The position numbers and the translations under genes are program-made. From the IMG/VR virus record IMGVR_UViG_3300024255_000004: a DNA stretch of 64,000 nt; one strand, 5' to 3'. The stretch comes from a virus. Positions 31,135-42,859 of this stretch are shown one piece after another. The notes under the pieces are model-generated. The model was not told the origin of the DNA and made no database searches. It saw nothing but the letters and a program-made list of their open reading frames with translations. The first letter of the stretch is position 1; every line of letters begins with the position of its first letter.

Positions 31135-31752
31135 ATGAAATACTATTATACCTATCGAGTTTTATTTAATAATGGTGACTATTACTTAGGCCAACACACT
31201 ACTGATAATTTAGACGATGGTTATACAGGTAGTGGAAAGAAACTCAATGAGAGAACAGACCCTTTCATATTTGATATACTAGAATACTACAATTCAGAAA
31301 AAGAATTAAACATTGCAGAGGCTGAGTTGATTGGTGATTTGTGGTGGACAGATGAGAAGTGTCTCAATATGAAAGAAGGTGGTGTTGGTGGTTGGACTGC
31401 AGTTAATAAGACTTTAGATAGGTCTTATATGTTGACTGAAGAGTATCGTCAGACAAGAAGAGATATTGCATTAAGATTACGAGAGGAAGGTATACTACGC
31501 ACATTCACAAAAGAAGACAGTATTAAAGGAAATCTTAGGTTGAAAAAACTATATCCACAAGGAACATTCCTAGGTAAGACACATACTGAAGAGACTAAGA
31601 AGAAGATTGGTCTGAATAGTGCAAAACACATGAAAGGTAAAGGCAATTCACAATATGGTAAAATGTGGATAACCAATGAACAGGAATCTACAAGAATCAA
31701 TAAGGGTGAATCTATACCCGAAGGTTGGAGAAAAGGACGAGTTATCATATAG
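31135..31752 (+). mobile_element. Free-standing GIY-YIG homing endonuclease (Seg-like) inside the tRNA cluster
   Basis: YTY..YYLGQH..YTGSG, E, LN..GG; NUMOD3-like GKTHTEETKKKI; MWITN..GWRKGR tail. Confidence 0.85.
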
Positions 31753-31906: not shown

Positions 31907-32509
31907 ATGAAAAATATACTATTAGGACTATTAGTCCTATCAACGTCTGCATTTGCAGATGTAAATGGAAGCATAGGTTATTCAAGTGACTATATGTGGA
32001 GAGGTGCAACTCAATCAGCAGGTGCATCATCATTAAACGCAGGTATCGAATTGGATTCTAACGGATTCTTTGTTGGTGCATGGGTTGGTGAAGTAGATTT
32101 CGGAGACGAAGCTACACAAGAGAGAGACCTATATCTAGGATATAATCTAGGTGTTATGGACAATTTAGATGTCCAATTAGGTGTCATTCAGTATCGTTAT
32201 GACAAAGGTGATTACGATACAGTAGAAGAGGGATTTGTAAAGGTTAGATATAACAATCTAAAAGTTGCATATTACTTGGATACGGATACTGAAAATGACT
32301 ATGCACACATATCATATGACTTGTGGTTCATAGATGCACTTGACGTATCTCTCGGATATGGATATCATGATGAAGATAATGATTTTTCAGCATTGTTATT
32401 GTCCAAAGATATCAATGACTTTACACTAGGTGCATTGATTATGTTAGACGAAGCATTTGAGAATCAAACAACTGATTCAATATCTTTTCATTTATCTTAT
32501 AATTTCTAA
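31907..32509 (+). CDS. Outer-membrane beta-barrel protein, TorF/Gcw_chp (TIGR02001)-like putative porin
   Basis: Signal peptide (AFA-D), SDYMWRGATQS, GFFVGAW, DLYLGY, C-terminal aromatic SYNF. Confidence 0.85.
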   Translation: MKNILLGLLVLSTSAFADVNGSIGYSSDYMWRGATQSAGASSLNAGIELDSNGFFVGAWVGEVDFGDEATQERDLYLGYNLGVMDNLDVQLGVIQYRYDKGDYDTVEEGFVKVRYNNLKVAYYLDTDTENDYAHISYDLWFIDALDVSLGYGYHDEDNDFSALLLSKDINDFTLGALIMLDEAFENQTTDSISFHLSYNF

Positions 32510-32517
32510 GATAGTTC

Positions 32518-33255
32518 ATGTTTGGGATACGTAATAAAAAGACCCGAGAGATTCTTGCGTTTTTTATGCATATCCCAAAGACTTCGGGGTCTCACATTAT
32601 TCAACAAATACAAGATTCAAGTGATGATTATGATATTATCAATATACGAATGATGTATGATGAGGATAATGGTGAACTCCGAAAGTCTATTGGTGGTCAT
32701 GCAGACCCACGTCATGAACACTTTCCAATAGAGAACCATGCACACCTTACACTAGACCAAGCATTTTGTCTCTATCCCAAATTAAAAGAATACATAAACA
32801 CCAATAATATAGACGTGTTTACTATTATCCGTGACCCTTATGAAAGATTTGTATCACAAGTCAGATTCATTCCGTCACTCATGATATCAGATTTCGATAG
32901 AAGAGGTGAGAATAAGAATCTCTTAGAACGATTGGATTCACATTGGTTTCATTTTTACTACACCAATCTGATATTTGAACCCCAGTGGAAATGGTGTTAT
33001 GAGAATTCCAATGACGAGAATCCATATACTAGAATCATTCGACTGGACGAAGTCAAAGACACTATATATGAAGTGACCAAAGGTTTTGACGTTGACTTCT
33101 CAAAAAACACATGGTCAAACGAAGAGGTAAACTCAGAGATAGGTGAGGTTCCTTTTAATATTCCCAAGTTCACACTGGACGAAGGGACTAAACATTTTGT
33201 GAAGTGGTTATATAAAGACGACTTCCGACTATTATTCGCTGGTATAGCTCAGTAG
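32518..33255 (+). CDS. Sulfotransferase-like protein (Sulfotransfer_2 type)
   Basis: FMHIPKTSGS (5'-PSB), IIRDPYERFVS (3'-PB), YKDDF; stop codon lies inside tRNA-Thr. Confidence 0.75.
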   Translation: MFGIRNKKTREILAFFMHIPKTSGSHIIQQIQDSSDDYDIINIRMMYDEDNGELRKSIGGHADPRHEHFPIENHAHLTLDQAFCLYPKLKEYINTNNIDVFTIIRDPYERFVSQVRFIPSLMISDFDRRGENKNLLERLDSHWFHFYYTNLIFEPQWKWCYENSNDENPYTRIIRLDEVKDTIYEVTKGFDVDFSKNTWSNEEVNSEIGEVPFNIPKFTLDEGTKHFVKWLYKDDFRLLFAGIAQ

Positions 33256-33313
33256 GTAGAGCAACTGATTTGTAATCAGTAGGTCGTCAGTTCGAACCCG
33301 ACTACCAGCACCA
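33238..33313 (+). tRNA. tRNA-Thr(UGU)
   Basis: GCTGGTA/TACCAGC, anticodon arm ACTGA-TTTGTAA-TCAGT, CCA encoded; one mismatch in T stem. Confidence 0.92.
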
Positions 33314-33324
33314 TTTTAGAATTA

Positions 33325-33399
33325 GGTCTGTTAGTATATCGGTGAGTATGCCTCCCTGTCACGGAGGAGAGAGGGGTTCGATTCCCCTACAGACCGCCA
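33325..33399 (+). tRNA. tRNA-Asp(GUC)
   Basis: GGTCTGT/ACAGACC, CCTCC-CTGTCAC-GGAGG, TTCGA loop, GCCA end. Confidence 0.92.
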
Positions 33400-33411
33400 A
33401 TTTTGTATTTG

Positions 33412-33531
33412 TATAAATACAATTGTGTCACCCAATTGACACATAAACGAAACAATTAAGTCACAAAGACTAAGTAGGTAAAATACCGAAGTGCAGTTGA
33501 TGGAACGTTTCAACAACAACAGGAGATAACA
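33412..33531 (+). ncRNA. Candidate structured leader RNA / riboswitch-like element after a late promoter
   Basis: TATAAATA at 33412; stems AAACG/CGTTT, CAATT/AGTTG, GTC/GAC, and E-loop-like AAGTA-GGT-AAAAT-ACC-GAAG; precedes a short ORF. Confidence 0.45.
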
Positions 33532-33642
33532 ATGCAACATTACGCATCATTGTCTGCCAAGTTTCTAAAGAGCTTATCAGACAACTTTAATGTGATGATG
33601 AAGAGTGGACGACTTGATAAAGTTGTGAACATTATTCAATAA
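33532..33642 (+). CDS. Short peptide (36 aa) downstream of structured leader
   Basis: AGGAG RBS; MQHYASLSAKFLKSLSDNFNVMMKSGRLDKVVNIIQ. Confidence 0.6.
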   Translation: MQHYASLSAKFLKSLSDNFNVMMKSGRLDKVVNIIQ

Positions 33643-33647
33643 ATCAC

Positions 33648-33677
33648 TTGACAAAACCCATGTATTGGTAGTATAAT
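33648..33677 (+). promoter_or_regulatory. Class I promoter
   Basis: TTGACA-N18-TATAAT. Confidence 0.7.
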
Positions 33678-33683
33678 AAATAC

Positions 33684-34016
33684 ATGGGTTTTTTAAATTT
33701 AAGTAGTTCTATTCGTTATTCACCACATGGGAAAAAACGTAAGACGAAAGCCTTTAAAAACACTAAATATAAACGATTGATTGCAGAACAACAAATTCAA
33801 TATGACCTAGTGATTCAATCAATCAAAGAAGAGGAACGTATACCTTCATACATAGGAACTTCAACAGGTGATATCACACCTAAAAGAGAACCTATGCAAT
33901 ATACAGGTGAACGTAAACTCTTAGGAATCGCAACCATGCATAAGTCGAATATGGTGCCTATCTTCGAAGAGGATAAACAACATGCAATCGACATTGCACG
34001 AATGCGAAGAAATTAA
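33684..34016 (+). CDS. Conserved hypothetical phage protein
   Basis: YTGERKLLGIATMHKSNMVPIF motif. Confidence 0.75.
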   Translation: MGFLNLSSSIRYSPHGKKRKTKAFKNTKYKRLIAEQQIQYDLVIQSIKEEERIPSYIGTSTGDITPKREPMQYTGERKLLGIATMHKSNMVPIFEEDKQHAIDIARMRRN

Positions 34017-34044
34017 ACATTATAATATATTAGGAGATTATATT

Positions 34045-34935
34045 ATGCCTATGGAAATGGTAGTTGTTAAAACAAAAGACAACGAATTAACAAGTGAACA
34101 ATTTAAAACATTCTTAACAGGTGTTAGCCGTCAAAGAATCATTGAACCCAATGAAGACGGAATACCTTTGTATAGACTCAACGTATATACAGACGACCCA
34201 ACAGGAATTCCCGACAGAGAAGACGTAAGAATTATACCCTTCTTTGCAAAAGAATCCGATAAGATAACCGACAGTGCATACAGAAAACTAGATATCTTCG
34301 ACAATGAGAGTTTATTTGGTGAAGGGACGAAGACTTGTCTTGTTGACCCACGTGTCCATATGTGTGACTTTGCGATGTCAGAACTTGCAAAAGGTATTCC
34401 CGACCAAGGGACAACCCATGAAACACACTTTACGTTTACTGCAGAAGAAGAACAAAGTGTCAAAGACAACAAGACACTCTTTATAACCCAAGGTGAAGAC
34501 TGGTGGTCACAAACTAAGACTTCTGTATATTCACCAGCACTTACCTGTTTTGTGCAAGGTGGTTGGAAGTTCCTCAAAGAAGAATTCCTTAAAGACCCAG
34601 TCGGTATCCAAACAGAATATCCTGGCGAGGACGGATTCCAACGTTGGTTAGAGACATTTATTGACAATACAAGAATCATGCCATTACCATTACCTAAAGG
34701 TGTATTGAGTGCATATACTACACATGACCACCCAAGGAATCTCATATTGAACGACCTATTTGAAACAGAAGTCAGACCTTCATGGACTGAATGGCGTGGA
34801 ATGGGTGGTGAAGAAGAAGGACGACTCTTTGATTTCGGTCATGAATACAGAACCCTCAGTAAACATGTATCCTTTCTCCTAGTTGAGGGAGACACACCAC
34901 ACGAGGACGAGTGGTTAGACCTATGGGTGATATAA
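34045..34935 (+). CDS. Hypothetical protein (possibly divergent glycosyltransferase-like)
   Basis: AGGAG RBS; LNVYTDDPTGI..KLDIF pattern. Confidence 0.6.
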   Translation: MPMEMVVVKTKDNELTSEQFKTFLTGVSRQRIIEPNEDGIPLYRLNVYTDDPTGIPDREDVRIIPFFAKESDKITDSAYRKLDIFDNESLFGEGTKTCLVDPRVHMCDFAMSELAKGIPDQGTTHETHFTFTAEEEQSVKDNKTLFITQGEDWWSQTKTSVYSPALTCFVQGGWKFLKEEFLKDPVGIQTEYPGEDGFQRWLETFIDNTRIMPLPLPKGVLSAYTTHDHPRNLILNDLFETEVRPSWTEWRGMGGEEEGRLFDFGHEYRTLSKHVSFLLVEGDTPHEDEWLDLWVI

Positions 34936-41411: not shown

Positions 41412-42828
41412 AAACTTGTTATCTTTCAACGAACTCATTACTGAGGAAAAAAGTAATGATAAACCATATCGACTTGTAATCATTGCAGAACGTCGCATGG
41501 TCAAGAGGGCAAAGAAGAATGCAGATAAACCTGTAGTAAAAAAACCCAGTTCGACTTCCAGTAAACTTTACAACATTGCAAAAGAGAATGGTTGTGAAGT
41601 GTATAGTGTTAAAGTGAATGGTGCATACATTGAACGTGCCGATAACGGAGTCATTACCATTCATAACCAAGATGACGAAAAAGGATTTGAGTTAGATGCA
41701 GATACCATTGTTATGGTTCGTGGTGCTGTCACAGCAAAAGATTCCTACTTAGATTTAATCAGTCAGATAGAAAGATACGGATTCCCTGTAGTTAATTCAA
41801 GGGAGTGTATCGAAGTGTGTGCAGATAAGTTTAGAACTTATTTACGACTACAAGAAATCGGAATGAACCAACCGAAAACAGTTTTGATTCCAAACGAGGA
41901 TTCTGAGACTGTAGACTTAGCTGCAAAAAGACTAGGAAACAAATTCCCAATGGTTCTAAAGACACTTCAAGGTGCAAAGGGGGTTGGTGTATTACTTGTT
42001 GAAACGGAACGTTCTCTGCAGTCTACAGTGAGTCTAGTGTATAAGATTGACCCTAATTGTGATATCCTAATTCAAGAGTATATTGAAATGGAATATGATG
42101 TTCGTGTTATGATTAATAACAAACGAATCATAGGTTCAATGAGAAGGAATAAAATTATTGATGATTTCCGTTCTAACATTTCACAAGGTGCAGAAGCAGA
42201 AGAGATTGAATTAACAGAACTAGAAAAAGAAACTTGTCTTATCGCTGCAAAAGCAGTAAACGGACAATGGGTTGGTGTTGACTTTATTCCTGCGAAAGAC
42301 AGAGAAAAAGATTCACCTTATATGTTAGAAGTCAATCAGTCGCCAGGTTCACAAGGAATCTCTGATGCGATTGGTAAAGAAGTTTGTGAAACAATTATAG
42401 AAGACTACATGGACAGAAACATATGGAAGAAGAGTGCAACTGAATGTGGTGTTCTCGAGACCATAGAGGTCGATGGTGAGACGATGACTGCAAAGCTAGA
42501 CACTGGGAACAGTGCAGCTGCTTGTGCCCTTCACGCAGACTCTTATGAGATTAAAGGTAAGGTTGTTCACTTCACACGTAATGGTAAGAAATTTAAAAAA
42601 CCTTTGGTCAGAAAAATTACATTACTCAAACCTGCTGAAACTCGACCAGTGGTTAAGTGTGAGTTAAACTTCTTAAATACTATATATGAACAAGAAGTCA
42701 GTTTAGACCAAAGAGGTAAAATCCCTTTTCTTGCAAATAGAGATTTTATGAATCGTGCAAACTTAATGATTAACCCGTCTAGGAAATTCCTATTGACCAA
42801 CAAACACGATACTGCAGAAGAAAACTAA
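41401..42828 (+). CDS. RimK-family ATP-grasp ligase fused to a retropepsin-like (RimB-type) aspartyl protease
   Basis: DKFRT, PKT, VLKTLQGAKGVGV, IQEYI..DVRV, FRSNISQG, GVD, LEVNQSPG; then AKLDTGN, RPVV, L..R..FLANRDF. Confidence 0.88.
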   Translation: MRNKNLLSFNELITEEKSNDKPYRLVIIAERRMVKRAKKNADKPVVKKPSSTSSKLYNIAKENGCEVYSVKVNGAYIERADNGVITIHNQDDEKGFELDADTIVMVRGAVTAKDSYLDLISQIERYGFPVVNSRECIEVCADKFRTYLRLQEIGMNQPKTVLIPNEDSETVDLAAKRLGNKFPMVLKTLQGAKGVGVLLVETERSLQSTVSLVYKIDPNCDILIQEYIEMEYDVRVMINNKRIIGSMRRNKIIDDFRSNISQGAEAEEIELTELEKETCLIAAKAVNGQWVGVDFIPAKDREKDSPYMLEVNQSPGSQGISDAIGKEVCETIIEDYMDRNIWKKSATECGVLETIEVDGETMTAKLDTGNSAAACALHADSYEIKGKVVHFTRNGKKFKKPLVRKITLLKPAETRPVVKCELNFLNTIYEQEVSLDQRGKIPFLANRDFMNRANLMINPSRKFLLTNKHDTAEEN

Positions 42829-42829
42829 C

Positions 42830-42859
42830 TTGACAATGACTTAAACTTTTTGTTATAAT
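42830..42859 (+). promoter_or_regulatory. Class I promoter
   Basis: TTGACA-N18-TATAAT. Confidence 0.7.

Follow-up and report, generated by a model that had tools for sequence, protein, structure and literature searches.

Structured leaders that gate the translation of late genes are, to our knowledge, known only from a few model phages. In phage Mu, the Com-activated mom leader forms a late-gene stem-loop that hides both the Shine-Dalgarno (SD) sequence and the start codon, with the factor site lying immediately 5′ of it. Leaders placed ahead of short ORFs in marine sequences are also found among the glutamine riboswitches of type 1 (glnA RNA, Rfam RF01739) and type 2 (Downstream-peptide), which have been reported only in cyanobacterial genomes, beside gifB/DUF4278 genes (PMC6212724). 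In the crystal structure of type 2, all bases conserved at >97% lie in the helix of 5′ CGUUC with 3′ GGAACG and in the linking strand, and the ligand pocket is virtually identical in type 1, where the E-loop does no more than make a turn beside the pocket (PMC6698751). T4-like phages carry PeSLs, cassettes in which an early sigma-70 promoter is fused to a simple terminator hairpin and which occur many times per genome (PMC2839356, PMC4122927).

The leader described here lies in a window of 64,000 nucleotides, the whole stretch of DNA that was analysed, whose source is an uncultured marine T4-like myophage; the NrdA of the window is 72–73% identical to the NrdAs of Synechococcus phages and of Pelagibacter phage Mosig. 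The first-pass annotation had read the leader as kin to the glutamine (glnA/Downstream-peptide) aptamers, folded around a three-way junction and controlling a small peptide in a non-cyanobacterial phage. The phage indeed does not look like a cyanophage, and a conserved structured leader before a small ORF is confirmed by covariation in relatives. The glutamine-aptamer interpretation is rejected, the E-loop module being all that the leader and those aptamers have in common.

With glnA RNA the leader shares the bulged-G E-loop hairpin, with the same flanks (A-AGUA-GG...CC-GAA-G) and a variable tip, and the location in the 5′ UTR of marine sequences, often before short ORFs. Unlike type 1, it lacks the three-way junction, the CGUUC/GGAACG ligand helix, the CGG linker and the long-range G-C pair. 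Its unbranched rod adds two helices and, besides the E-loop, two conserved internal loops, and it heads other genes in a phage late-gene setting. Type 2 likewise precedes a very short ORF in marine sequences, but our leader is without the CGUUC/loop-GGAACG pseudoknot and its peptide is not DUF4278-like. The likeness to the mom leader concerns the outline of working only, the factor that would bind here being hypothetical; the two are unrelated in sequence and fold, and in the present leader the ORF itself supplies the anti-SD strand, which can also pair with a second partner. PeSLs are similar as short conserved cassettes in a hyperplastic region with small ORFan genes and varied neighbours (PMC2839356, PMC4122927), but the leader has a late-type promoter and a complex E-loop fold, extends into the ORF and is single-copy. 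Finally, the sarcin-ricin loop and eukaryal loop E have the same AGUA/GAA bulged-G module, closed by G-C and often GNRA-capped; the leader is no faithful mimic of them, since its tip is unconstrained (GAAA, UAAAAUA, UAUAU or long stems), and it is located in an mRNA leader.

Genomic setting, relatives and 5′ end of the leader

Two tRNA genes, a late-promoter motif, the leader and its ORF follow one another at the locus, and a terminator-like hairpin separates them from the next ORF (Table 1). The tRNA-Asp gene is a clean insertion or deletion with respect to a near-identical phage (L001, 3400–3425; 97% protein identity), and the form without it is also seen as a joint 33310>33397 in contigs from two RNA libraries. 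The tRNA-Thr gene is overlapped by 18 nt by a sulfotransferase-like ORF (32518–33255; Pfam Sulfotransfer_2, 22.1 bits, just over the cutoff of 22). Upstream of it, 31907–32509 encodes a signal-peptide protein with a match (36.3 bits) to Gcw_chp, a Pfam family of outer-membrane-type proteins from bacteria; the protein, here phage-encoded, is kept beside the leader in several relatives. The ORF at 31135–31752, between tRNA-Ala and tRNA-Ser, gives weak GIY-YIG and NUMOD3 signals, both under the Pfam cutoff, and may be a homing endonuclease within the tRNA cluster. By blastn and tblastn against 50,697 phage records, neither the 36-aa peptide nor the neighbouring 317-aa and 69-aa proteins have relatives beyond chance, and a search for cultured relatives of the region or of a typical leader in the same records gave only tRNAs and chance matches.

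Table 1. Features at the leader locus, with positions in the window
Feature	Position	Strand	Basis or remark
tRNA-Thr	33238–33313		
tRNA-Asp	33325–33399		
Late-promoter motif TATAAATA, T4-type	33412–33419	+	sequence; conservation in relatives
Leader, 112 nt	between TATAAATA and the 36-codon ORF		
HP1, 5′-terminal 7-bp hairpin UGUGUCA/UGACACA, loop CCCAAU	33424–33443	+	compensatory changes
Rod, 63 nt, unbranched	33449–33511	+	RNAalifold; covariation
P0 of the rod	33449–33453/33507–33511		next internal loop AAUUAA/GGAAC
P1 of the rod	33460–33464/33496–33501		U33497 bulged; next internal loop AAAGA/CA
Lone pair	C33470:G33493		between P1 and E-loop
E-loop, bulged-G type, AGUA/GAA	A33472–A33476/G33488–G33491		
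P3 of the rod	33477–33480/33484–33487		loop AAA
Linker AACAACAACA, A/C-rich, unpaired	33512–33521	+	between rod and SD sequence
Initiation-region hairpin	33522–33558	+	RNAalifold; energy; invariance
36-codon ORF (MQHYASLSAKFLKSLSDNFNVMMKSGRLDKVVNIIQ)	33532–33642	+	relatives 32–53 aa
CAGACAA within ORF, alternative partner of anti-SD strand 33550–33556	33578–33584	+	minimum-energy fold
Terminator-like hairpin and U run with sigma-70 promoter	33648–33695	+	sequence; stem covaries
110-codon ORF	after the 33648–33695 hairpin; ATG 33684		

Relatives were collected from viral and metagenome contigs with an exact 24-mer and then with two degenerate E-loop patterns, which yielded 28 distinct leaders (alignment A2). 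This kind of search fixes the E-loop as a constant, hence a second, independent search was based on the initiation region only (GGAGAT-N4-ATGC-N8-GCAT-N4-GTCTGCC); with three pattern scans in total, the family came to 67 distinct leaders, every one of them from uncultured marine viral or metagenome contigs. Nearly all members of the set selected by the initiation region retain both AGUA in the 5′ strand and GAA in the 3′ strand, while the 28 leaders selected by the E-loop all share one initiation region. Each module is thus conserved in a sequence set that was not selected for it, and therefore the two belong together. The motif GAC-TAAGTAGGT-AAAAT-ACCGAAG, which had been picked out in the window before any relatives were known, is present at 33468–33491, and its E-loop is kept in relatives found without requiring an E-loop.

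The leader occurs once in the window, once per locus and once in a 153-kb contig. Covariance model R1 detected no further copies in the window, 36 loci and three whole viral records, and its sole weak match (21.5 bits) is a plain terminator hairpin. No leader was found in the 50,697 phage records, and the phage clade that carries it is without any cultured member. At gathering and E-value thresholds no Rfam family claims the leader in the window and six related loci, where tRNAs and chance matches are all that was returned. It occurs in two different genome neighbourhoods, and one relative (L274) is a recombinant between leader types.

The late-promoter sequence TATAAATA pointed out in the first-pass annotation is present, and this octamer occurs in the AT-rich window six times against 6.2 expected, i.e., without enrichment. 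Where relatives have unrelated DNA upstream, be it tRNA genes, a terminator or coding sequence, homology starts at (T/C)TAAATA or TATATA, and the motif is followed by C/G, four nucleotides and the first paired G. The first paired base is always the sixth past the motif, in long and short leaders alike: in long leaders it belongs to HP1, and in a short-leader clade from which HP1 is missing and whose promoter abuts P0, it is the first G of P0. Because (T/C)TAAATA is kept at a fixed distance from the first helix despite unrelated upstream DNA, we ascribe a promoter role to TATAAATA. Such spacing from motif to start is that of T4 late promoters; under this rule the transcript is predicted to start at about G33425, the sixth base after the motif, and the RNA would therefore begin inside a helix. 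HP1, which had been noticed as the hairpin TGTGTCA/TGACACA (33424–33430/33437–33443), covaries in relatives, with UA/AU and CG/AU/GU/UG at two pairs and with the variants TGTGACA/TGTCACA, TGTAACA/TGTTACA and ATGTTACA/TGTAACAT.

Seawater metatranscriptome libraries hold exact-match contigs covering 33437–33724, which attest presence only and not transcription, and near-identical contigs covering 33397–34100, from libraries that may include DNA. Gaps at 33634–33695 and starts at 33706 in two studies are likewise not readable as transcript ends. The predicted transcript 33425–33700 has a fold z of −4.5. A hidden ORF running through the leader was considered and discarded; its frame is open in some relatives, yet has an in-frame TAA in the tip loop of the window.

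The rod fold and the glutamine question

Covariation supports an element without branch or junction, a rod whose three conserved internal loops include the E-loop. Unguided RNAalifold recovered P0, P1, P3 and the SD/AUG hairpin. Across the 28 sequences, 100% of the cells of the rod are paired; under the full model 93.8% of cells are paired and covariation scores 0.256 versus 0.084±0.013 when shuffled, with 0/500 shuffles as high and slid controls at ≤0.041. For the core, 46 distinct sequences aligned with covariance model R1 gave 97.8% paired, double changes at six of eight pairs, and a score of 0.626 versus 0.139 shuffled (slid controls ≤0.057), the clades behind the covariation being modest in number and alignment A4 having been fitted to the model.

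The individual helices change in concert. By a script count on 47 sequences, the variable pairs of P0 are AU20/UA24/CG2/UG1 and AU31/GC12/GU3/UA1, so that the helix reads GAAAC/GUUUC in the window and GUGAC/GUCAC, GUAAC/GUUAC, GUUAC/GUAGC or GCAAC/GUUGC in relatives. P1 (G33460–C33464 with G33496–U33501) is found as GUCA/UGAC, GACA/UGUC and GUGA/UCAC, and the lone pair as C:G, G:C and A:U. In the second search set, the pairs closing the E-loop vary as well (GG/CC, GA/UC, GC/GC, CC/GG, AC/GU), and the tip has stems of 6–8 bp with loops GAAA, UAAAAUA, GUAAAA or UAUAU. Tip length ranges from 4 nt to >20 nt, with complementary arms and often a GAAA tetraloop, while the linker between rod and SD is A/C-rich and 10–14 nt long in all relatives. 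The full-length minimum-energy fold of the window itself favours small local hairpins over the rod, and the isolated rod has −8.4 kcal/mol (z −0.67), values in which the non-canonical E-loop pairs are not scored.

The three-way junction drawn in the first-pass annotation does not withstand the same comparison. The helices that would close it, CAATT/AGTTG and AAACG/CGTTT, and the small hairpin AGTC/GACT can all pair in the window, yet no substitution in the 28 relatives is compensated and each one breaks a pair; G33449:C33506, for example, holds in only six of them. The substitutions that break the small hairpin are the very ones compensated in P1 and C33470:G33493, which discriminates between the two folds. 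Covariation among homologs, which had been suggested as a check on the leader, was thus found, but in the rod rather than in the junction. An alternative hairpin GTTGA/TCAAC, placed by the annotation just ahead of the ribosome-binding site, gives no signal, with 389/500 shuffles as good.

A comparison with the Rfam glnA and Downstream-peptide models had been suggested too. Only tRNAs score above the Rfam thresholds. In a permissive search, Glutamine (RF01739) is the top cis-regulatory match, covering 33451–33497 with 13.5 bits versus a gathering threshold of 35 (E 4.8 over 451 nt; E 1.2 over the 115 nt of the leader alone); the six related loci have no Glutamine match at E≤1, and the type 2 model has no match at E≤10. 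The E-loop of RF01739 is present as AAGUAGG...CCGAAG, with AGUA/GAA kept and covarying closing pairs, and AAGUAGG-loop-CCGAAG is the only part that matches in the cmscan alignment, where three of five P1 pairs are non-standard and the GGA and CGG segments are deleted. The sequence GGAACG, which had been taken for a conserved aptamer strand, does exist at 33502–33507, 13 nt further downstream, but it is kept in just 6/28 relatives and is replaced in the others by GGAUAG, AAAACG or UUAAAG. As the annotation had already remarked, the leader contains no CGUUC strand, and no CGUUC/GGAACG pseudoknot of the type 2 kind is present. In Pfam the 36-aa peptide bears no DUF4278/IF17 signature, and the association of glutamine riboswitches with nitrogen genes (gifB/IF17-like DUF4278, in cyanobacteria) does not occur here.

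It is thus extremely improbable that the leader is a divergent glutamine riboswitch of type 1 or type 2. The identity of its E-loop hairpin (A-AGUA-GG/CC-GAA-G) with that of glnA RNA, the rank of the Rfam match, the short ORF downstream and the marine setting would all suit such a riboswitch, but the score is far under threshold and not repeated in relatives, no branch is supported, the peptide is without DUF4278, and the ligand-contacting CGUUC, GGAACG and CGG linker are absent or not conserved (for their roles see PMC6698751). Riboswitches of this kind have moreover been reported from cyanobacterial genomes alone, with gifB homologues next to them (PMC6212724).

The initiation region and the ORFs behind the leader

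The AGGAG at 33521–33525 and the 36-codon ORF had been annotated correctly. RNAalifold pairs the SD GGAGAUA (33522–33528) with UGUCU(G)CC (33551–33558) and AUGC (33532–33535) with GCAU (33544–33547), and both SD and AUG are thus predicted to be paired with codons 5–9 of the ORF. This initiation hairpin has −11.7 kcal/mol and z −3.4, with 1/200 shuffles as good. Among the 28 relatives found by the E-loop pattern alone its paired bases are invariant, including the synonymous third positions of GCA, UCU and GCC; the two changes seen in the hairpin, A:U to U:G and U:G to U:A, preserve pairing. Being invariant, the hairpin is almost without covariation of its own. Its pairing accounts for the conservation of the first nine codons down to their nucleotides, third positions included, and for the presence of the same nine codons at the head of three ORF classes.

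With about 30 more bases, the anti-SD strand 33550–33556 prefers the CAGACAA within the ORF (−14.7 kcal/mol, z −3.3), and this pairing is predicted to free the SD. The complement of the anti-SD is kept in three ORF classes and two reading frames, as GCAGACAA, GCAGGCAA, GGUAGACAAU or GCAGAUU, with wobble-compatible changes, and in L283 it is GGUAGACAAU in a different reading frame; conservation across reading frames suggests that selection acts on the RNA rather than on the protein. For the SD, the predicted probability of being unpaired is 0.05–0.1 in the secreted-protein class versus 0.2–0.9 in the peptide class. Pairing between the rod and the anti-SD was also considered and rejected, amounting to only 3–4 bp (GCAG/CUGC) that are uncompensated where G33493 changes.

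The ORFs that share the leader and first nine codons encode peptides of 32–53 aa, a class of 40–43 aa, and a signal-peptide protein of 92–98 aa. The 32–53 aa relatives of the 36-aa peptide differ by conservative replacements. No Pfam family was found at E≤1 for the 36-aa and 43-aa peptides and one of two 94-aa proteins, and the other 94-aa protein (L024) gives only sub-threshold chance Pfam matches, none of them DUF4278; no PHROG family was found for the peptides and the 94-aa protein. The 92–98 aa protein, with a cleavable-looking signal peptide (MLKYALVSALFLVGFAQA...), is encoded on the minus strand of L024 (6669–6953) and L149 (7159–7443), and also in L226, L238, L273, L274, L291, L308, L309 and L347. 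In L332 (603–664, minus strand), L063 and L123, the leader-peptide unit is followed by a phage gene of the small heat-shock kind (hsp20). That gene has its own conserved AACUUGCUUA-N-AAAGGAG leader, with a weak match to Rfam ROSE_3, an RNA thermometer (25.5 bits versus a threshold of 43).

The leader-peptide unit ends with the hairpin of 13–14 bp and U run at 33648–33695, whose stem covaries in relatives. Within this hairpin there is a perfect TTGACA-N18-TATAAT whose -10 box (33672–33677) falls in the loop, and the ATG of the conserved 110-aa ORF lies in the 3′ arm, exactly at the expected promoter start. This arrangement suggests that the ORF may be read from a leaderless early mRNA, and the whole has the makings of a PeSL-like promoter/terminator cassette (for the concept see PMC2839356, PMC4122927). 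Perfect TTGACA-N18-TATAAT promoters number only two in the 64 kb, whereas PeSLs repeat through hyperplastic regions; the second one, at 42830–42859, stands directly after an ORF ending at 42828.

Possible workings of the leader

Our best explanation, to which we give a probability of roughly 55%, is that a late transcript begins with a single-copy 5′ leader, common to a clade of uncultured marine T4-like phages, and that this leader controls the translation of a tiny ORF. The transcript would most likely start where a terminal helix has its base (HP1 in the window, P0 in relatives with short leaders), and this paired 5′ end would shield the RNA from 5′-end-dependent decay. Next would come the 63-nt rod with its two covarying helices, covarying lone pair, invariant bulged-G E-loop (A-AGUA/GAA-G) and free tip, and then ten unpaired A/C-rich bases that would lead into the SD/AUG hairpin and may offer the ribosome a standby site. 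We infer that the initiation hairpin gates ribosome entry by having two states: codons 5–9 would swap to their complement about 25 nt further into the ORF, and the SD would be freed. A trans-acting factor would dock on the rod, with its strictly conserved internal loops, and would either bias the gate or protect the RNA. A protein, from phage or host, or the ribosome is a likelier candidate for this factor than a metabolite, because none of the rod's strands is in competition with the SD, the anti-SD or the partner of the latter, because the regulated genes give no metabolic logic, and because E-loop modules typically serve proteins and RNA as docking sites.

Three other explanations have to be set beside this one. 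The leader could be a constitutive expression cassette, a late-promoter counterpart of the PeSL cassettes: the terminal helices would do no more than stabilise and insulate the late mRNA, and the conserved DNA would serve as a hinge for recombination by which genes pass from one phage to another. Different ORFs behind the same leader and first nine codons, the two genome neighbourhoods, the recombinant L274, the 5′ end that is paired in every case and the PeSL-like cassette directly downstream would all agree with this, and variants of PeSLs and of promoter-middle are documented (PMC4122927). A stabiliser or hinge, however, has no need of an invariant E-loop and conserved internal loops, nor of a hairpin that sequesters SD and AUG and has a conserved alternative partner, and the leader is single-copy per genome, unlike PeSLs; we therefore hold the cassette to be unlikely, though with a real chance of being right.

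A small chance goes to a new riboswitch for a small molecule or ion other than glutamine, with the rod as aptamer and the SD/AUG hairpin as expression platform. Rod-shaped aptamers do exist, such as those of the THF-II and xanthine riboswitches, and covarying helices around strictly conserved internal-loop bases, with a variable tip and directly 5′ of a sequestered ribosome-binding site, are what one would look for; on the other side, the rod neither overlaps nor competes with the SD, the anti-SD or the alternative partner, the regulated genes are those of an uncharacterised peptide or a secreted protein, and there is a single copy per genome. A related and equally doubtful proposal sees in the rod a sensor of a new riboswitch-like class that would respond to a metabolite, an ion or a protein of phage or host and would likewise act through the two-state SD/AUG hairpin. 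Very improbable, finally, is an array of regulator sites at the DNA level, similar to Pho boxes. The window has four GNNAC units at an exact spacing of 11 nt (33427, 33438, 33449, 33460), and short-leader relatives carry TTGTCAC-ATAA-TTGTCAC on the minus strand, which is close to the E. coli Pho-box consensus. Yet the units vary freely (GAAAC, GACAC, GUGAC, GUAAC, GCAAC), each of their changes is matched by a complementary change 40–60 nt downstream and so is explained by RNA pairing, the window is without two direct TGTCA repeats, and the units lie downstream of the conserved promoter motif.

Whichever factor the late leader responds to, a false riboswitch call is removed: the E-loop hairpin by itself is a recurrent RNA module and no proof of glutamine sensing. 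In its place stands a new and well-supported RNA family of 67 variants, in which five helices or pairs covary and which is absent from Rfam. If the rod were a sensor, it would set the moment at which abundant uncultured T4-like phages of the sea translate a tiny late peptide or a secreted 95-aa protein. That so complex an element is conserved points to the importance, for these phages, of a regulatory step and of a small peptide.
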